Shown one piece after another: positions 5,954 to 46,328 of a stretch of 64,000 nucleotides of DNA. The notes below the pieces were generated by a model that searched no databases, was not told the origin of the DNA, and saw only the letters and a list, made by a program, of their open reading frames with translations. Location of the stretch: NCBI GenBank assembly GCA_041666945.1, contig JBAYFY010000002.1, positions 701 to 64,700 of the forward strand, given 5' to 3'. The DNA comes from Candidatus Buchananbacteria bacterium. Its GTDB lineage: Bacteria > Patescibacteriota > Patescibacteriia > 2-01-FULL-39-33. Numbering within the stretch: position 1 is the first letter of the stretch; every line of letters begins with the position of its first letter. The position numbers and the translations under genes are program-made.

Positions 5954-6586
5954 TCAGGAAGGTCTTTTGCCGATTGCAACATTACACGCGAAAGCAAAAC
6001 GTTCCGGATGTTCCAGATAATCATAAAGGAATCGTATTTTTTCCCTAATCTCATCTTCGTTTGTCGGGGGAGCGCTATGATTAACTTCCAGCCAAAGCAG
6101 GGAACGGATTTCTGCGATGATTTCCGGCAGTCGGGGAGCAGAAAGGGTTTTTGCTTTTTCATATTCAGGGTTGTCACCCCACAAGACCGACAGGAGAACA
6201 GGCATTAGATCTTCATCCAATTCTTTTAATTTTAAACTGGCGCACAGATTTAGCACTAATGTTATCAACCGTGAGAGTGATTCTCTGGGAAAGGGCTTCA
6301 TAGCCGCTTCGCGTTGCTCAACTGTTAAGGAACACTTATATTCAACCATCGGTTCCTTTTTTGTCTCTTCGGTTGTGGTTCCTTCAATAAAGCAGTCCCA
6401 GGATATTTCCCGAAAGGACAAAATAACTATCCGTGTGCCCCGTGTGCCAAAAGAACAAACATCGCTGATCTTTTTTATTGCCTGACTGAATGGAAAGTGG
6501 CCTTTATCAAATGCCATAAAGATATTATCGATGCCTGGGTTGAAATGTTCGGTGAACATAGCGTAAGAAACGAACCAATATTTCAT
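5954..6586 (-). CDS. Hypothetical protein (opposite strand, between murC and murB)
   Basis: 210 aa ORF with host-like codon usage. No confident motif. The N-terminus KYWFVSYAMF is only loosely TIR-like. Confidence 0.55.
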   Translation of the reverse strand: MKYWFVSYAMFTEHFNPGIDNIFMAFDKGHFPFSQAIKKISDVCSFGTRGTRIVILSFREISWDCFIEGTTTEETKKEPMVEYKCSLTVEQREAAMKPFPRESLSRLITLVLNLCASLKLKELDEDLMPVLLSVLWGDNPEYEKAKTLSAPRLPEIIAEIRSLLWLEVNHSAPPTNEDEIREKIRFLYDYLEHPERFAFACNVAIGKRPS

Positions 6587-29539: not shown

Positions 29540-29613
29540 TCAGCGGTAGCTCAACGGTAGAGCAACCGGCTGTTAACCGGTAGGTTACTGGTTCGAATCC
29601 AGTCCGCTGAGCC
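29540..29613 (+). tRNA. tRNA-Asn (anticodon GUU)
   Basis: Cloverleaf folded by hand. Acceptor TCAGCGG/CCGCTGA, D stem GCTC/GAGC, anticodon stem ACCGG/CCGGT with loop CTGTTAA, T stem ACTGG/CCAGT with TTCGAAT loop, discriminator G followed by CC. Confidence 0.85.
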
Positions 29614-29759
29614 TATAACTCGTTTTACGATTTTCGCCTCCCATGCGGAGGGAGAGCTTATAACTCGTTTAATTAAAATATCCGTCTTTATGGCGAATAT
29701 TTTAATTATGTAAAATAGATTAAGCCGTTTGAAAATTTGGCATAAAATAAACGAAGGGA

Positions 29760-30008: not shown

Positions 30009-30251
30009 GGGGATTATAATAGTTGCGTCGCCGTGAGTGGTGACGCTTTTTTTTTATTTAAAACGTAAGGTTTGACTGAATCCGGACGGGTCAGAAACGA
30101 GACAACTTTTGTTACGTAGTATGTTACGTAACAAGAAATGTGTTGTCAAATAATTTTTATATATTTACCCGCTCTCCCGTGTGCGTAAACTGCACCCTCT
30201 TGATAATTATTCTAACTTTGAATATTCTTATATTGAATATATCATAAAGGT

Positions 30252-30473
30252 ATGCCAAAGACAATACATACAGACGAATATCAAAGAATTACCGAACGGC
30301 TCAAACAAGCCAGGGTTGATGCTGATTTCACACAAGAAGAAGTGGCTAAAAGAATTAAAAAGCCCCAATCTTATGTTTCTAAAATTGAGGCAGGGGAGCA
30401 GAGGATTGATATTATTGAACTTAAAGTATTTGCTAAACTTTACAAAAAGGAAGTTGATTATTTTATTCAATAG
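30252..30473 (+). CDS. XRE-family HTH regulator, likely R-M controller (C) protein
   Basis: 73 aa. LKQARVDADFTQEEVAKRIKKPQSYVSKIEAGEQ is a canonical Cro/C1 HTH. Sits 4 nt upstream of the next ORF and is convergent with the MTase. Confidence 0.8.
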   Translation: MPKTIHTDEYQRITERLKQARVDADFTQEEVAKRIKKPQSYVSKIEAGEQRIDIIELKVFAKLYKKEVDYFIQ

Positions 30474-30477
30474 ATAT

Positions 30478-31449
30478 ATGGAAAGGATAAATTATAAGGA
30501 ATTAATAGAGAAGTATCCTTGGGTTGTGGAAAAAGATCATGATTGTATATTGAGCCCAGACAGCGACGGTTTGCTGTGCGGTCTTTTTATGGCACATTAT
30601 TTGAATTGGAAAATAAGGGGATATTACGACGGAAAGGTATTAATTGTTGATAAAGGTGTAGATTTGCGTGAGTGTGTATTTTTGGATATGGAGATTTTTC
30701 GTAAAGAAATTAGAAGTGTGGGCCATCATATGGTGCTTTATAATAAAAATAAAAAACCGGAATCCTGGCATAATTTTGAGAATTGTGTTCAGCCGAATAA
30801 TTTACGTGATTATGATGGCGCCAAAAACTTCCCTTTAAAATATCCGTTAGCGACAATTCATTTATTGATTGGTATATTAAATAGTAAATTTTCAATTGAT
30901 ATTTCTGAATCGGCTATTTGTCCCTTATTGTATACAGATGGAGTTTTTAAAAATTTATTTGGATATCCGGAAAATTGTTTGGATTGGCTGAATTATCTTG
31001 GGGCAAACAATAAAGAAACAGCATTACATCAGATATTTCATAATGATTATTACTCCATTCATGATTTAATGGACGCTTTGAAGGATTTTTTTGAAAAAAT
31101 ATCTAATATTGGTGAAGGTAAAAGGGGTAATGATAAAATTAAAATATCAAATACTAAGAGCGAATTGGTAAATTTAGAAAAATCAGAGGATTGTTATTTT
31201 ATTAATAATGAAGCGAAAATAAAGGCCACAAAGTTTATAATGATATTATCCGAGTTGACGGGTTGGAAATATAAGGAAAATCATTGGTTATGGTCTGGTT
31301 TTAAAGTGATTAAATTCGAAAAATCTAAAATAAAACCAAATAATAAAAATTTTGAATTTTTATTGTCAAAAAATCCGCTGTCTTGGGCTATGACCAGCGG
31401 ATTAGATATAGAATACACTTTAGATCCTGATAATCTTTTATTAAAGTAG
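30478..31449 (+). CDS. Putative type II restriction endonuclease (position-based inference)
   Basis: 324 aa AT-rich ORF between the C-protein and the convergent MTase. No family-level motif recognised. Confidence 0.4.
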   Translation: MERINYKELIEKYPWVVEKDHDCILSPDSDGLLCGLFMAHYLNWKIRGYYDGKVLIVDKGVDLRECVFLDMEIFRKEIRSVGHHMVLYNKNKKPESWHNFENCVQPNNLRDYDGAKNFPLKYPLATIHLLIGILNSKFSIDISESAICPLLYTDGVFKNLFGYPENCLDWLNYLGANNKETALHQIFHNDYYSIHDLMDALKDFFEKISNIGEGKRGNDKIKISNTKSELVNLEKSEDCYFINNEAKIKATKFIMILSELTGWKYKENHWLWSGFKVIKFEKSKIKPNNKNFEFLLSKNPLSWAMTSGLDIEYTLDPDNLLLK

Positions 31450-32934
31450 TTTGTTTTGAAGTGTTTGTCTTTCTTCTTTTATTCGTTTTTTTGCCAACTC
31501 GCAATATTCTTCTGAAATTTCAAAACCAATATAGTTTCGGTCTTGATTGATGGCGGCCAATGCAGTAGTGCCGCTTCCTAGAAATGGGTCAATAACAATC
31601 CCTTTAGGCGGACAAAAACATTGAATAAAATCAACTGGTATTTTATCTGGAAAAGTTGCCGGATGTTGATGTTTTAAACGGGTTCCGTCACCGCAAGTTA
31701 CATAATCCCAAATCGTCCCCCTACATTTCAGAGGATTTATTGTTACTTTATGGGATTGTAATGTTTTGCCGTTCGTTAATCTCGTTGCGCATCCAGTCAT
31801 GGTTTTACCGCCATGTTTTGATGGTATTTTTAAATGATCTTTTTGAAAATATTGCGGTCTCTCTCCCTTCAGAAATATTGGGATATATTCGTGATCGACC
31901 CTGAATCTTTTAGTCCACCAGGCGCCTTCGGCGCCGTGTTTTTTATAAATAACAGTTTCGAATAGTTTAAATCCAATATTATCGCACCAATCAATAATAG
32001 TACGAAATGATGTTAGTGATTTACCAAAGTTTTTGGTTTGATCTTGGATTACCATTATTGCAACTCCTCCGTTTTTCAAAATTCGAAAAATTTCTTTTCC
32101 CGTATCATGCAAATTATAATTGAATCCATTATAGTCCCTTACGCTGTCGTAGGGAGGGGAAGTAACTATTACGTCAATTGAATTGTCTGGTAATCTTTTC
32201 ATTCCTTCAACGCAATCCACACATTGTACCGTGTTAAGAACTTGTTTTAAATTCAATTCCCTGTTTATTTTTTGGTCATAATCATGAGACGTACTATTGT
32301 ATTCAAATGTTATATTTGGTTGCTCTTGTTTGATAATATCAAAAACGACTCCCTGAATATTAAATTTTTGATTTTTGTTTACTATAATCGGGCTAAATTG
32401 CTTATTAGCCGGTTGAAGCCGTATTTGATTTTTTTCTTTATAGTATCTTTTTAATGTCGCCTCAGTGTTATTAATCAACGCAACAACTCGATCTCCATTA
32501 TTAGCGGTTTGTTGATTTTTAACTAAAATAATATCGCCGTTGTTAATGTTTTCATCAATCATGCTATTACCACTAACCTTTAAAGCATAGAAATTACCGT
32601 TAGATGGTAAATTTGACTTAGGTACCGCAATGGTCTCCCTTTCTTCAATTGCTTCAATTGGTTGACCGGCGACGATAGTGCCAAAAAATGGAACCTGAAT
32701 TAAGAGTTCGCTGGAAAAAATATCAATGCTTCTGGCATGGTTCTCTGTTTTGTTTAAAAATCCCTTATCTTTAAGTGCCTCAATGTGTTGATGAACCGTG
32801 CTAACTGATAGTTTAAAATGCTTTCCGATTTCCTCAAGAGAAGGGGAATATCCATTTTTTTTGATGTAATCCTTAGTGTAATTAAGGATTTCTTTTTGTC
32901 TTGGGGTTATCATATTTGACTTTATTTTGAGCAA
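31441..32934 (-). CDS. Fusion: LexA-like repressor (wHTH + S24 autopeptidase) :: beta-class N4/N6 DNA methyltransferase
   Basis: N-terminus matches LexA (PRQKEIL..., GNSM catalytic Ser, TLKRY catalytic Lys). C-terminal part has motif IV VTSPPY before motif I DPFLGSGTT. This is the pfam N6_N4_Mtase order. Confidence 0.8.
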   Translation of the reverse strand: MLKIKSNMITPRQKEILNYTKDYIKKNGYSPSLEEIGKHFKLSVSTVHQHIEALKDKGFLNKTENHARSIDIFSSELLIQVPFFGTIVAGQPIEAIEERETIAVPKSNLPSNGNFYALKVSGNSMIDENINNGDIILVKNQQTANNGDRVVALINNTEATLKRYYKEKNQIRLQPANKQFSPIIVNKNQKFNIQGVVFDIIKQEQPNITFEYNSTSHDYDQKINRELNLKQVLNTVQCVDCVEGMKRLPDNSIDVIVTSPPYDSVRDYNGFNYNLHDTGKEIFRILKNGGVAIMVIQDQTKNFGKSLTSFRTIIDWCDNIGFKLFETVIYKKHGAEGAWWTKRFRVDHEYIPIFLKGERPQYFQKDHLKIPSKHGGKTMTGCATRLTNGKTLQSHKVTINPLKCRGTIWDYVTCGDGTRLKHQHPATFPDKIPVDFIQCFCPPKGIVIDPFLGSGTTALAAINQDRNYIGFEISEEYCELAKKRIKEERQTLQNKLL

Positions 32935-33227
32935 GATTTATTATATAAGTATTATACCGAAAATAAACCGAAAGTAGAAGTTGAGTTATCCACAGCAAAC
33001 ATTGCTAATGTGTTGCATATGATTTTATTAAATGGAATAATTGCCAAAAGTCTATTGGCGCGCTAAAATTGAAGCAAATATGGCCTGTGATATCAAAAAT
33101 CACCGAAAACTCAGAATGATAAGTTAGAAGGTTCTAATAGTTTGAGAACATCAATTAAATAAAAAATACTTTGTTTTAATCACCTTGAAAATAATAAGAT
33201 TTCTTAAAAATAATTGACGATAATAAT

Positions 33228-33578
33228 ATGGATCTTAAAAATTTTACAAAACAAGCCATTTTAGAAATTACCGAGGCCGTTAAAGAAATAAATATTGATA
33301 GAGAGGTTTTATTGGTATCCGGCAAGGATAAGCGAACAATAGAATTTGATGTGGCCGTAACTGTTGAGGAAAATAGAGCTACAACTGGCAGTGGACAGAT
33401 TCAAGTGCTAGGTCTTATTCGGGGAGAGGGCGATATTAAACAAGAAGTTAAAAATGCTACTGTTAGCAGAATTGAATTCGGTGTTTCGATAGCAACAGCA
33501 ACAAAAGCCGAGATTGAAAAGCAACGATTAGAAATCGAAGCGTATAATAGAAGAAATCAAGATTCTAGTTATAAATAA
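33228..33578 (+). CDS. Hypothetical protein, probably co-transcribed with Abi-like gene
   Basis: 116 aa. The following gene starts 18 nt after its stop. Confidence 0.45.
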   Translation: MDLKNFTKQAILEITEAVKEINIDREVLLVSGKDKRTIEFDVAVTVEENRATTGSGQIQVLGLIRGEGDIKQEVKNATVSRIEFGVSIATATKAEIEKQRLEIEAYNRRNQDSSYK

Positions 33579-33596
33579 TAGAATTTATAACTTTTT

Positions 33597-34646
33597 ATGG
33601 AAAGCGAATTAGAGTCTTGGCAGATAACAGATTTTAATTTGAATGACAATCAGCTCAAGATTGACAAGCTTGGTCTTATAAAAATAATTAGAAGTGATGA
33701 TGGTATTTTAACTCTTGTTAGTGACGCAAATTACGGGGTCATAGATCATGAAAAACCCTCACCGGCAAAGTTTGCTAACAATGATTCTATTTTGGGGTTT
33801 ATACTTGATATAGGCATTAGAAGAGAAAAAGTGCTTGCCAGTGGACATGGTTTTTATTTCGGTAGATCAATAATTAGGCCCCAATCCTCAAAAATTATTT
33901 CTCAGAATGATTTCGATGAGGAATTATTTGAAAAAATCAGTGATATCATTAACAGCAAATATCAATCCAATAATAAACAAGAAGAAACGGAGGCAATAAG
34001 ATTGAGGTTTTTATTTGATACATACAATAATGCTCGTCTTTTATTCCCTAATTTTTTATCAGAAAGTTATCTTAACCTATTACGAATTATCGACGCATTA
34101 AGCGTTAAGAGGCACGCTGAAAGTTTCGCTCTATTCGCAGCAATGATTTCCTCAGATTTAAATGATGCAATTTATAATAAAGTAAATATTATAGAGGGAT
34201 ATAAGGATAGAATAGATTATGCGGCTGATTTATTTAAAAATTTAATGGAGAAAAAAAATATTGAGAGATCCTGTAAAGCTGAAATGGGTAAATTAAATGA
34301 TAAAGGAAAGTTTATTTTTTCTTGTTTCTATGTTGCTTACCAGTACAGAAACAAATTTGTTCATCTCGGCTTCCCATTTCCAGACACCGTTAAGAATTCT
34401 TATGGCTTAAAGGATGGCTCCGGTACTGCATTTTTAAATCCAGCGCTTGGTATTTATTGGCGAAAAGTTTATAGGCCGAATGGAATCGAAGATGGCGATT
34501 TAATAGACATACATCAATTTATGCCCGACGAAGAAGAGGCGCAAAAATTTAAAGACGAATATTTTAAGCTTCTGCCAACTTGGCATTTTGTAAAACAACT
34601 AACTAGAGAGGCGTTACGGAAAAAAATTATTAACGAATCTAAATAA
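33597..34646 (+). CDS. Abi_2 / AbiD-AbiF-like abortive-infection protein (HEPN Rx4H)
   Basis: 349 aa. YQYRNKFVHLG matches the HEPN R-x4-H motif typical of Abi_2. Size and AT-rich context fit. Confidence 0.55.
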   Translation: MESELESWQITDFNLNDNQLKIDKLGLIKIIRSDDGILTLVSDANYGVIDHEKPSPAKFANNDSILGFILDIGIRREKVLASGHGFYFGRSIIRPQSSKIISQNDFDEELFEKISDIINSKYQSNNKQEETEAIRLRFLFDTYNNARLLFPNFLSESYLNLLRIIDALSVKRHAESFALFAAMISSDLNDAIYNKVNIIEGYKDRIDYAADLFKNLMEKKNIERSCKAEMGKLNDKGKFIFSCFYVAYQYRNKFVHLGFPFPDTVKNSYGLKDGSGTAFLNPALGIYWRKVYRPNGIEDGDLIDIHQFMPDEEEAQKFKDEYFKLLPTWHFVKQLTREALRKKIINESK

Positions 34647-34795
34647 AATTATATGGAAAAATATATTCGCAAAGTAACTCATGCCGGCAAAATAATCCTG
34701 TCAATCGTTATCCCGACAGAAATCGTGGATGAATTAAAGATAAAAGAAAAGCAGAAATTGACCATAACGACAAAATGCAAGAGTATTATTAAAGA

Positions 34796-35476
34796 TTGGA
34801 AATAGTTTTAATTATGATTCCAAAACAAGAAAAAATATATAATGAATTAGGTAAACAATTAGTTAATTGTAATTTTAACTGTTCCGGTATTAATAATAAT
34901 AAAAAGTTCGGGTATTTTCCTCGGCTATTATTTATAGAAAAAGGAAATGATAATGGAAAAGGAGCAATTATTATCGGATTAAATCCAGGCAAGTGTGGTG
35001 AATCAGAACGAAAGTGGGTTAGTAAAAATCAAGATTATTGGGTTAATCAAAAAGATTATTATAGTAATAATTTATTAAAGTGGAAGTATTTTCGTCGCGT
35101 TAAGGAGCTATTAAATTTACTTGGTTATCAAGGTGATATCTTATGGACAAATTTAGTAAAATGTGAGTGCATCGGTAGTAACGGAGATTTACCGATACAA
35201 ACCATAAGGACATGTGTAAACAAATTTTTAAAGAACGAAATTGATAGTTTATTGCCTCAGTGTGATATATTTGCCATAGGTAACCAATCTTTTGGGATTA
35301 GTTCGGTGGCATTTCCTAATAATTTTGTAATTGGGTTGCCCCATTCATCTGGTCCGTATGCTTCAACTAAATTTTTACGATTGTTAGAAAAAATTAGAAA
35401 AGACAAAAAAAAGTATTTAAACATAATTAATAAGAAAGGGGATAATAATAATCAGATTTTAGCAATAAAATTATAA
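34796..35476 (+). CDS. Uracil-DNA glycosylase superfamily-like protein (MUG/TDG-like motifs)
   Basis: GAIIIGLNPGKCGE (motif A, compare the GINPG of Mug) and GLPHSSGPY (motif B, compare NPSGLS). Confidence 0.5.
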   Translation: MEIVLIMIPKQEKIYNELGKQLVNCNFNCSGINNNKKFGYFPRLLFIEKGNDNGKGAIIIGLNPGKCGESERKWVSKNQDYWVNQKDYYSNNLLKWKYFRRVKELLNLLGYQGDILWTNLVKCECIGSNGDLPIQTIRTCVNKFLKNEIDSLLPQCDIFAIGNQSFGISSVAFPNNFVIGLPHSSGPYASTKFLRLLEKIRKDKKKYLNIINKKGDNNNQILAIKL

Positions 35477-35488
35477 AATGGTAATACT

Positions 35489-36238
35489 ATGAAAGTGGGT
35501 AGGAATGATCAATGTCCCTGTGGTAGCGGTCGAAAATATAAGCATTGCTATCAGGATCATGATAGCGGTTGTTTACAAAAATTAAAGGATGATAGAATTA
35601 AAATGTTAGCAGAACATAATGACCGTGAAAAAAAAGTATTTCGTTTTTTTAATGAAGTAATAGAAGAAACAAATATTATTTTATTAAAATCAGAAGATGG
35701 TCATGATAAGATTCAGTCACGAATACAAATGATTATTATTTTTAGTTTGGTCGACATGTTGGGCGGTTATTGGTATACGTTTCTCGGGCAGAATGGTAAA
35801 ACATTAGAGCGTCCAAAAAATTGGTACAACAAATACTGTGCTACTGAAGAGAATATACATTATAAAGATTTTTGGACGGAATTAAATGTTGAACGCTTGT
35901 ATGTTTTTAGAAATTCCCTCGTTCATTTTTTTGGATTAGGTGAAAAATACGATAATATATACATTTCACTCGCATCAAATAATTTGCCAGATAAAACGCA
36001 TAAAAATTGGCAAGAAGAATTTTCAAAAAAAGGAGACAAGACGATTATTATTAGACCAGAAGATTTTTATAATTTAATAAAAGAGGGTGGCGTATTGATG
36101 CTAAAAGAATGGGGGAATATGATTAAGCAAGCACAAACCAATAGAGATAAAGAGTGTTATTATATTAATGGCATAGAACGAGTCTGGGATAAGATTAGAA
36201 AAGAAGGGGCTGTAAGAATTCCAAGTAATATTAAATAA
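35489..36238 (+). CDS. SEC-C zinc motif + HEPN-like (Rx4H) domain protein
   Basis: N-terminal GRNDQCPCGSGRKYKHCY is near-identical in pattern to the SecA C-terminus. Later FRNSLVHFFGLGE is an Rx4H motif. Confidence 0.6.
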   Translation: MKVGRNDQCPCGSGRKYKHCYQDHDSGCLQKLKDDRIKMLAEHNDREKKVFRFFNEVIEETNIILLKSEDGHDKIQSRIQMIIIFSLVDMLGGYWYTFLGQNGKTLERPKNWYNKYCATEENIHYKDFWTELNVERLYVFRNSLVHFFGLGEKYDNIYISLASNNLPDKTHKNWQEEFSKKGDKTIIIRPEDFYNLIKEGGVLMLKEWGNMIKQAQTNRDKECYYINGIERVWDKIRKEGAVRIPSNIK

Positions 36239-36504
36239 TTTTAATAATTAGTTATAATTAGGCCGTCGCCGTCTGCCTGCCGGTAGGCAGGGCTTCAAAA
36301 ATCGTCATTGGGAAATTTTTGAAAAAAATTTCTTATTTTCTTAAGGAGGGAGGGCTTATAGCTTGTTTTACGCATCTCATCGCCACCTCCACAGGTGGCG
36401 ATTTGCGTTTCTACTAATATTTTTCAGCTTTCTTTTAATTTCACCACCGCTTCCCGCGAGAGCAAGGGGTGGCAAAGTTAGTAATTACCCATTTAATATA
36501 AAAA

Positions 36505-45746: not shown

Positions 45747-46328
45747 ATGAAAAAAGAATATCCACCCGGTCAAGAAATTCAAGAAAAAATTCCTAAGAAG
45801 GAAGTCGCTTTCGCCTTTATCAAACCGGATTTTTTTGCCGATCTGCCGACTATAGAAGAAATTATCAGGGATCATGGTTTAGAAATAATTTATCGCGATC
45901 AAATCAGATTGTCGCCCCAAACCGTTGATTTGATTTATCAGGAAGTGAAAAACGAACATTTTTTTGAAGCCATGAAGGATTACCTTATTTCCCATGACGT
46001 TGTTGTTATGTTAGTTGGCGGCGAAGGGGTTGAGGCGCAGAGGGTTTTGTTGAGTCTCAAAAAAGACCAGGGCAAAGACGGAGTAATCCGTGAGCGGCTA
46101 CAAAAACATCCGCAAGTTTCCGGTGAAGAATTAGCTCTCTGGGAAAGCGGCCAGCATCCCCGACAAAATGAATTGTCAGTTGTCTTAACGCAAAAGAATG
46201 TTTTACATACAGCCGATAACGCGGAAGAAGCTTTGGCCGGTTTAAAAGCCATTTTGGGTCCTAAGTTCGAAATATTGCAAAAACGCGGCAATCTGCCGGC
46301 CGAGTTATGGGATATTTTTAATGAATAA
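45747..46328 (+). CDS. Nucleoside diphosphate kinase-like protein (divergent)
   Basis: FAFIKPDF and NVLHTAD align to the NDK motifs IKPDG and NIIHGSD. Start chosen at the internal ATG. Confidence 0.45.
   Translation: MKKEYPPGQEIQEKIPKKEVAFAFIKPDFFADLPTIEEIIRDHGLEIIYRDQIRLSPQTVDLIYQEVKNEHFFEAMKDYLISHDVVVMLVGGEGVEAQRVLLSLKKDQGKDGVIRERLQKHPQVSGEELALWESGQHPRQNELSVVLTQKNVLHTADNAEEALAGLKAILGPKFEILQKRGNLPAELWDIFNE

Follow-up and report, generated by a model that had tools for sequence, protein, structure and literature searches.

An undescribed family of uracil-DNA-glycosylase-fold proteins with a putative iron-sulfur cluster, and a possible antiviral role for its member in a Candidatus Buchananbacteria genomic island

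We analyzed a 64,000-nucleotide stretch of the genome of a Candidatus Buchananbacteria bacterium (contig JBAYFY010000002.1, positions 701 to 64,700 of the forward strand), which we will call the window. Here we focus on one of its genes, which lies on the forward strand at 34814-35476 (stop codon included) and encodes 220 amino acids. Judging by its structural model, the product is a real and well-folded protein with the fold of the uracil-DNA glycosylases (UDGs), and it belongs to an undescribed family. It is probably an active glycosylase. We see an even chance that the family is a new group of antiviral enzymes akin to Brig1, Brig2, and Brig3, which are divergent defence glycosylases of the UDG superfamily (PMC11078745; 10.1101/2025.10.29.685425; 10.64898/2026.02.25.707755), with the member from the window aimed at uracil- or thymine-type bases. 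A role in defence is plausible and is backed by the genomic context: because the family has a sporadic distribution, an atypical base composition, and recurrent defence and mobility genes as neighbors, we view its members as cargo of defence islands and mobile elements.

The open reading frame runs from 34796 to 35476 (forward strand) and would encode 226 amino acids if counted from a TTG at 34796. The ATG at 34814 is probably the real start, because the resulting 220-residue protein is identical to a hypothetical protein at NCBI (WCT16_01405, from a metagenome-assembled genome of Candidatus Buchananbacteria, in the Patescibacteria or candidate phyla radiation (CPR)) and because this start agrees with the N-termini of the homologs. 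The initial annotation had pointed to two UDG-like motifs, GLNPG and LPHSSGPY, in the expected order. These motifs are real: both the sequence and the family alignment (136 members) support motif A at residues 55-59 (G55-L-N57-P-G59; 34976-34990, forward strand) and motif B at residues 175-182 (with His177; 35336-35359, forward strand). They fall on the most conserved columns of the alignment (G55 99%, N57 99%, P58 100%, G59 96%, G174 96%, and H177 98%), so they are not a chance pattern. N57 is predicted to be the catalytic residue that positions the water, as in UDG families 2 and 3. Exactly four cysteines are conserved across the family (93-99%). C19 and C23 form an N-terminal C-x3-C pair (34868-34882, forward strand). 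C117 and C134 lie in a segment that begins with the strand W111-T112-N113-L-V-K116-C117 and runs through C134 (35150-35215, forward strand). (C119 of the window's protein is not a conserved position in the family.) The GxNPG motif, H177, Y92, W111-T112, K116, and the four cysteines are mostly at least 92% conserved. We predict that the four cysteines are the ligands of a putative [4Fe-4S] cluster.

The family is hard to see from a single sequence. The window's protein by itself matches nothing in Pfam, PADLOC, NCBIfam, or PHROGs, its sequence search against the PDB returns only a marginal match to 1UI0, and a word-indexed search among 5.8e9 proteins finds only five relatives. In contrast, a profile search of 1.84e9 cluster representatives yields 498 proteins at E <= 1e-3 (176 of them at E <= 1e-30), most of which are 205-250 amino acids long. 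Of 121 relatives, 86 individually match the UDG family of Pfam (PF03167; best E of 7e-11), while the window's protein is below the Pfam threshold. Similarly, a first AlphaFold model, which was built on a 5-sequence alignment, had a mean predicted local distance difference test score (pLDDT) of 69.8, and its fold matches were ambiguous and mixed with α/β-hydrolases. It was superseded by a model built on the 121-sequence alignment (pLDDT of 96.3; predicted template modeling score of 0.92). In a Foldseek comparison to the PDB, the best matches for this model are UDGs: the family-4 enzymes from Thermus thermophilus (1UI0/1UI1, E of 3e-6) and Sulfolobus tokodaii (4ZBY, 3.5e-5), followed by SMUG1 from Geobacter metallireducens (5H98, 2e-4, 15% identity), BdiUNG (5GN2, 3e-4), and UdgX (6IOD, 2e-2). 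When viral structures were searched instead, phage UDG-like proteins came out on top, together with the UDG-like domain at the N-terminus of phage PolA. So the structure prediction gives a UDG fold, and the proposal that this is a protein of the UDG superfamily holds up.

The initial annotation placed the protein in the MUG/TDG branch (family 2), but this assignment is not supported. Motif A is GQDPY in family 1, GINPG in family 2, GMNPG in family 3 (SMUG), and of the GE(A/G/Q)PG type in families 4 and 5 and in UdgX; motif B is HPSPLS, MPSSAR, HPSPRN, and of the HPS type, respectively, and the last group also has a 4Fe-4S cluster (PMC4787834). The consensus of the new family is G-[I/L/M]-N-P-G for motif A and G-x-P-H-[P/S]-[T/S]-G for motif B. 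Such a motif A is common to families 2 and 3, and the histidine of motif B, which is 98% conserved in the new family, is absent from family 2. Also, the cluster of families 4 and 5 is held by an N-terminal pair of cysteines together with internal cysteines, and MUG does not have that N-terminal part (PMC5295032); the window's protein does have a cysteine-bearing N-terminal extension. In a HMMER alignment, the WT[N/E]LVKC...C segment of the family aligns with ITNIVKC...C of 1UI0, and C117 and C134 land on cysteines of 1UI0. Finally, there are no MUG or TDG structures among the top 50 Foldseek matches from the PDB, which are led by the iron-sulfur UDGs of family 4, with SMUG1 next. Given the GxNPG motif A, the conserved histidine in motif B, and the four cysteines that resemble those of family 4, the family is, at the level of sequence, a hybrid: it has catalytic motifs of the SMUG/MUG type on a putative iron-sulfur scaffold of the family-4 type.

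What base might these enzymes recognize? In the UDG from S. tokodaii, N82 hydrogen-bonds with the Watson-Crick face of uracil, and the equivalent residue in Brig1 is the essential Glu147 (PMC11078745). N113 of the window's protein aligns with the uracil-reading Asn of the T-N-x-V-K-C strand of family 4 and with Glu147 of Brig1. The Brig1 sequence (from the supplement of PMC11078745) has the same motif A, GLNPG, and the strand ILNFEL where the family has ILWTEL. The profile-sequence alignment of the family to Brig1 (with hhalign) is weak (E of 0.0044 and a probability of 7.8%), but it does place Brig1's GLNPG on G55-G59, Y121 on Y92 (which is Tyr in 92% of the family), and E147 on position 113.

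At this position, 97 of the 136 members have Glu, 26 have Asp, and 13 have Asn. The members with Asn are polyphyletic, and nearly all of them have nearest neighbors with Asp or Glu, so from the alignment, the switch between Asn and Glu/Asp arose repeatedly. The switch co-varies with position 38 (Gly/Leu versus Cys) and position 93 (Phe versus Tyr). (In the window, positions 38, 93, and 113 are encoded at 34925-34927, 35090-35092, and 35150-35152 on the forward strand, as located by the family alignment.) A pocket that is remodeled repeatedly is unlike that of a housekeeping enzyme for uracil repair and would fit enzymes that track varied targets. Most members, which have Glu or Asp at position 113, may read modified bases of the cytosine type, as Brig1 does. 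Because the window's protein has Asn instead, along with its SMUG1-like motifs, we predict that it reads uracil- or thymine-type bases such as deoxyuridine, 5-hydroxymethyluracil, or hypermodified thymine. For the same reason, with Asn rather than Glu at the reading position, glucosyl-5-hydroxymethylcytosine is not a predicted substrate.

The distribution of the family is sparse and patchy, which is not what is seen for a housekeeping core gene, and one related genome has a family member at the same hotspot (discussed below). We scanned one genome per species (185,579 species) and found at least 50 loci, scattered over many phyla. This is a lower bound because the search pattern demanded Glu or Asp at position 113. 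The archaeal hosts include Thermoplasmatales, Woese-, Micr-, Hades-, and Bathyarchaeota, Methanosarcinales, and Nitrososphaeria, and the bacterial hosts include Patescibacteria, Chloroflexota, Bacteroidota, Planctomycetota, Acidobacteriota, Proteobacteria, Bacillota, and others. In IMG/VR, a single provirus carries a family member; tblastn against sequenced plasmids and phages gave no family match.

The neighborhoods of family members are not conserved, but some kinds of genes recur. In two independent domain censuses, each of about 150 neighbors, DNA methylases were the most recurrent (N6_N4 in 3 neighbors in the first census; Eco57I/N6_Mtase in 4, N6_N4 in 3, and C5 in 2 in the second). Other domains among the neighbors were Mrr_cat, HNH, DpnI, MmeI, XhoI, Type ISP, NA-iREase1, integrase, Fic, and PIN. 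On long annotated contigs, we found members with a type I restriction-modification (R-M) system and an AAA_15/21 ATPase; with PDDEXK, CARF-HTH (helix-turn-helix), and UvrD proteins; on an element that encodes two integrases and a relaxase as well as SNF2, RadC, and ImmA; and with HNH_2 beside an MmeI/Eco57I-SLFN gene and a PLD-SNF2 gene. In Alicyclobacillus fastidiosus (CP104067; 2172-8660 of our locus L059), a Tn7-like element carries a member as its first cargo, behind tnsB, tnsC, and tnsD. (In this element, TnsB is similar to Mu transposase, TnsC is a TniB/AAA_22 protein, and TnsD is a TnsD/TniQ protein; unknown proteins of 304, 314, and 716 amino acids follow the UDG-like cargo.)

In the window as well, the gene sits in a horizontally acquired, low-GC island beside a tRNA gene. 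The low-GC block spans about 30100-36300 and has a GC content of about 0.30, versus about 0.50 in its flanks. Directly upstream is the tRNA-Asn(GTT) gene (29540-29613, forward strand), which is the island's integration site. A direct repeat of 24 nucleotides, resembling an attachment (att) site, brackets the block: the left copy is at 29647-29670, and the right copy is at 36345-36368, where the low-GC block ends. The two copies match at 21 of 24 positions (by local alignment), a score that just 3 of 500 shuffles attained. Searching the right border for the 3' end of the tRNA as an exact pattern was negative at up to 3 mismatches, and no integrase remains in this island or in the corresponding island discussed next. 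An additional att-like copy at 29654-29670 suggests successive integrations. In the window, the hotspot and its repeat sites take up 29540-29670 and 36345-36372.

The closest homolog (P0002) is 67% identical to the window's protein and is present on 19 contigs, which we call the L001 group. The window and L001, both from Patescibacteria, are syntenic upstream of the island (rubrerythrin at 81% identity, desulfoferrodoxin at 67%, DnaG at 46%, and RpoD at 72%, and then a tRNA-Asn in both). The L001 island also has low GC, and it is bracketed by a perfect 17-nucleotide repeat that overlaps the 3' end of the tRNA (hotspot and repeat sites at 6336-6421 and 11526-11542 of L001). Its cargo differs from that of the window's island. 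The gene order is an HTH gene, two N6/N4 methyltransferases (with SPPY and DPPY motifs), a 408-amino-acid protein with an HNH-like C-terminus, a 51-amino-acid AbrB-like protein, the UDG-like protein, and a 214-amino-acid protein. The two islands share only the AbrB-like protein (76% identity) and the UDG-like protein (67%); between the methyltransferases, identity is just 24%, and the remaining genes show no relationship. Since only these two genes are in common, we view them as a cassette that stays in place at the tRNA-Asn hotspot as the R-M genes beside it are exchanged.

In the window, the UDG-like gene is the fourth of five genes in an operon-like block (33228-36238, forward strand), which encodes proteins of 116 and 349 amino acids, the AbrB-like protein, the UDG-like protein, and a protein of 249 amino acids, with gaps of 18, 6, 8, and 12 nucleotides. 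The initial annotation had the UDG-like gene directly after an Abi gene (the 349-amino-acid open reading frame) and before a HEPN gene. But its true upstream neighbor, 8 nucleotides away, is the gene for the 50-amino-acid protein with an AbrB/MazE/SpoVT fold (34653-34805, forward strand). As for the Abi and HEPN labels, the 349- and 249-amino-acid proteins have no matches to such families by sequence in Pfam, PADLOC, NCBIfam, PHROGs, or the PDB. All they have in common is a Y-x-[YF]-R-N-x-x-V-H segment, which is similar to the Rx4H motif of HEPN proteins, and the sole library match for either is an N-terminal SEC-C motif in the downstream 249-amino-acid protein. Elsewhere in the island, an XRE-type HTH gene (73 amino acids; 30252-30473) is followed by an open reading frame of about 323 amino acids (30252-31449 for the pair, forward strand). 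The latter has no family match and no recognizable nuclease domain in our library scans, and the two genes are a candidate pair of controller and restriction enzyme. Convergent with them is a gene for a 497-amino-acid fusion of a LexA DNA-binding domain, an S24 peptidase, and an N6/N4 DNA methyltransferase whose motif IV is SPPY (31441-32934, reverse strand). S24 is a self-cleaving peptidase, and the protein would join an SOS-type repressor to an R-M methylase.

If the preferred reading is correct, then the window's protein would be an active, monofunctional DNA glycosylase from a [4Fe-4S]-type family of the UDG superfamily, carried as cargo by the tRNA-Asn island. It would be co-transcribed with the small AbrB-type DNA-binding protein, which would probably control its expression. 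Like Brig1, Brig2, and Brig3, it would scan DNA and, in the genome of an invading phage, flip a non-canonical pyrimidine into its pocket, where Y92 would stack on the base and N113 would read its Watson-Crick face. With N57 (motif A) positioning the water for the attack, H177 (motif B) would stabilize the leaving base. The many abasic sites that result would block the replication of the phage. The antiviral role, the substrate, the cluster, and the AbrB-like protein's part in regulation are proposals that we draw from these comparisons.

A broader version of this proposal is possible but somewhat doubtful. In it, the proteins would be an eighth type of UDG family, made up of stand-alone, iron-sulfur, Brig-like antivirals that are spread by islands, Tn7, and integrative elements among CPR bacteria, DPANN archaea, and many more phyla. 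Their substrates would toggle between modified U/T and modified C via a concerted switch at positions 113 (N↔E/D), 38 (G/L↔C), and 93 (F↔Y), and in Buchananbacteria, an AbrB-type protein would control them, much as C-proteins control R-M systems.

Several observations weigh against an antiviral role. First, the sequence similarity to Brig1 is statistically weak (as given above), and Brig1 has neither the cysteine ligands nor the histidine of motif B. Second, the defence models of PADLOC do not match the window's protein. Third, of seven long contigs that we sampled, three are less telling, with housekeeping neighbors, a transposase fragment, or an adjacent HicB. Fourth, AP_endonuc_2 was found in 2 of 150 neighbors, a hint that certain lineages may use the enzyme in ordinary base-excision repair. 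Fifth, a cytosine-type methylase (SPPY or C5) lies near all three of the closest loci, which also fits a role in repair. Sixth, the AbrB-like and UDG-like proteins have diverged between the window and L001 to about the same extent as the core flanking genes (67-76% versus 46-81% identity), so the pair may be partly inherited vertically.

The strongest alternative, although we consider it unlikely, is a repair glycosylase that is accessory or linked to R-M systems. It would remove U or T from G:U or G:T pairs that arise by deamination of C, N4-methylcytosine (m4C), or 5-methylcytosine at the sites of a neighboring methyltransferase, and it would travel with R-M systems into hosts with small genomes that may lack other UDGs. 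There are functional analogues, namely Vsr with Dcm and Mig with M.MthTI. Methyltransferases are indeed the commonest neighbors, and the two AP_endonuc_2 neighbors suit repair too. The SPPY motif IV of the window's methyltransferase and of the first methyltransferase of L001 is of the m4C type, and N113 with SMUG-like motifs would suit the excision of uracil or thymine. Also, a 45%-identical relative (L009, 544-5979) is found with a C5 methylase, an HNH_2 endonuclease, and a PDDEXK/RNase_H_2 protein; directly downstream of it is a 127-amino-acid protein that looks similar to DUF559/Vsr, but by eye only. On the other hand, many of the linked methylases are adenine-type (type I HsdM, MmeI-type, Eco57I/N6_Mtase, and β-class with DPPY/F), so the repair of deaminated cytosine would be irrelevant there. 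Any methyltransferase is nearby at only about 15-20% of loci, and its type is not correlated with residue 113. Glu or Asp, which 90% of the family has at the predicted base-reading position, does not suit the recognition of U or T. Finally, the methyltransferases next to the cassette in the window and in L001 share only 24% identity, so the cassette is not bound to any one R-M system.

We also considered whether the UDG-like protein and its AbrB-like neighbor act as a toxin and antitoxin, which we find improbable. The glycosylase would be genotoxic by acting on normal bases, the AbrB/MazE-like protein would neutralize or repress it, and the pair would stabilize the island or cause abortive infection. 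There is a precedent for toxicity, in that human UNG becomes toxic, and removes normal cytosine, once its pocket Asn is changed to Asp. The layout, with a small gene 8 nucleotides before a larger one, is like that of antitoxins, and the pair is kept in two genomes. Furthermore, the small protein matches MazE_antitoxin from Pfam (E of 6e-4) and an "antitoxin" family from PHROGs (E of 1.6e-4). But the AbrB-like partner is limited to the window and the L001 group, and about 115 other loci have no recurrent small partner. (We looked for a recurrent small upstream partner across the family and rejected it, as the upstream open reading frames are heterogeneous or spurious.) Constitutive toxicity is not possible because most members of the family are stand-alone genes. 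Also, about 50 close homologs of the AbrB-like protein (63-84% identity) are found alone or beside unrelated genes, and the 50-amino-acid protein appears to be a DNA-binding fold only, with no toxin-binding tail. A role as a small regulator of transcription is more likely than one as an antitoxin. AbrB-like homologs are common in Patescibacteria, where they often lie at the edge of accessory nuclease blocks (HsdR/PDDEXK or RNase_H_2/WYL/NYN) or alone (for instance, at 3501-3677 of L068, 3501-3656 of L070, and 3501-3656 of L072).

It is similarly improbable that the protein is an ordinary housekeeping UDG, that is, a divergent member of family 4 that carries out general repair of deamination in reduced genomes. 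The closest solved structures are of family-4 UDGs, the window's protein keeps their pocket Asn, a few members weakly match UDG_fam4 or Arch_udg, and some sources label members as "uracil-DNA glycosylase family protein." Nevertheless, the family is very thinly and unevenly distributed, the window's gene is in a low-GC island between att-like repeats, other members are carried by Tn7, by integrative elements, and by defence islands, motif A differs from GE(A/G)PG, and N, D, and E all occur at the pocket position.

Restriction glycosylases, such as R.PabI (which has a different fold), are listed as a class in PMC4357717. The adjacent methyltransferases in the window and L001, the R-M genes as top neighbors, and the lack of a recognizable nuclease domain in the 323-amino-acid protein beside the window's methyltransferase would fit such an enzyme. 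Still, we rate as least probable of all the idea that the adjacent R-M system uses the UDG-like protein as its restriction component, with a base excised at unmethylated sites: L001 already has a candidate HNH-type endonuclease, most family members have no methyltransferase nearby, the cassette recurs beside unrelated methyltransferases, and sequence specificity is not known for UDG-fold enzymes.

Outside of the island, a 1,054-amino-acid open reading frame (36575-39739, reverse strand) has three tandem repeats of 87 nucleotides (37124-37384), which encode a segment that is rich in Lys, Glu, and Ala and resembles a coiled coil; a scan against NCBIfam gave no match. There are also low-GC patches at 40001-42000 (0.376) and 44001-46000 (0.358), against a background of about 0.45, which could be further acquired segments.

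Defence by base excision (Brig1, Brig2, Brig3, and Dag) is a very recent paradigm with few characterized families. If the antiviral reading is true, then the family would be an independent, fourth lineage of UDG-fold defence proteins and the first on the iron-sulfur scaffold of family 4. It would also extend the mechanism to ultra-small organisms of the CPR and DPANN groups, whose phages and DNA modifications are almost unknown. The natural variation among Asn, Asp, and Glu at position 113 offers a testable rule for which modified base is removed by each enzyme, and the variants could be a toolbox for mapping modified pyrimidines. If the protein is a repair enzyme instead, then it would be a new case of damage-repair genes that hitch-hike with R-M systems.

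UDG-fold antiviral glycosylases are already an established kind of protein. What is new here is, in terms of sequence, the combination of a putative iron-sulfur-type scaffold with a SMUG/MUG-type motif A and a motif B that contains His. The family is not demonstrably within UDG families 1-7 or any of Brig1, Brig2, and Brig3, where Brig2 was compared by its description only. In the literature, we found no description of an R-M-linked UDG family or of an iron-sulfur family with GxNPG, and in the Brig3 paper (10.64898/2026.02.25.707755), we found no link to iron-sulfur clusters or to family 4.

Among the known families, MUG/TDG is similar in having a GINPG-like motif A with a catalytic Asn, but its motif B (MPSSAR or NPSGLS) has no His, and it has neither the N-terminal extension of about 50 residues (PMC5295032) nor the cysteine cluster. 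The family-4 UDGs (UDGa; 1UI0 and 4ZBY) are the best structural matches. They share the T-N-x-V-K-C ... C segment with the window's protein, which retains their pocket Asn; both also have a His in motif B and four cysteines (an N-terminal pair and two internal), which in the window's protein are putative equivalents of the [4Fe-4S] ligands. However, motif A is G-E-(A/G)-P-G in family 4 and G-L-N-P-G in the window's protein, and the N-terminal cysteines of the latter have a different spacing (C-x3-C). The template modeling scores are only about 0.5, with 18-19% identity, and NCBIfam's UDG_fam4 does not match the window's protein and matches just 4 of the 121 relatives, weakly. Furthermore, the pocket Asn is replaced by Glu or Asp in 90% of the new family, and family 4 is near-universal while the new family is accessory and island-borne. 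SMUG1 (5H98, and 9GGS from human) has G-M/L-N-P-G and a motif B that contains His (PMC4787834), although that motif is HPSPRN in SMUG1 and P-H-S-S-G-P in the window's protein. SMUG1 has no set of iron-sulfur cysteines, is only 12-15% identical, and is a housekeeping repair enzyme. It excises uracil and 5-hydroxymethyluracil, the class of substrate that we predict for the window's protein.

Among the defence enzymes, Brig1 is an antiviral glycosylase that acts on α-glucosyl-5-hydroxymethylcytosine in DNA (PMC11078745). Like the window's protein, it belongs to the UDG superfamily with family 4 as its closest solved relative, has GLNPG as its motif A, and is located in defence islands; it is a single-gene effector, as the window's protein is proposed to be. 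It differs at the base-reading position, where Brig1 has its essential Glu147 and the window's protein has N113, but 123 of the 136 family members carry Glu or Asp there. The homologs of Brig1 are few and mostly actinobacterial. Brig2 is a UDG-like defence enzyme against phages with modified thymidine (10.1101/2025.10.29.685425). It resembles the window's protein in having a UDG fold, and in its association with mobile elements and AT-rich islands, and its target, modified T/U, is the class predicted for the window's protein with its N113, but the homologs of Brig2 are mainly from Pseudomonadota and Bacillota, whereas the window's family is mainly from CPR, DPANN, Chloroflexota, and similar groups.

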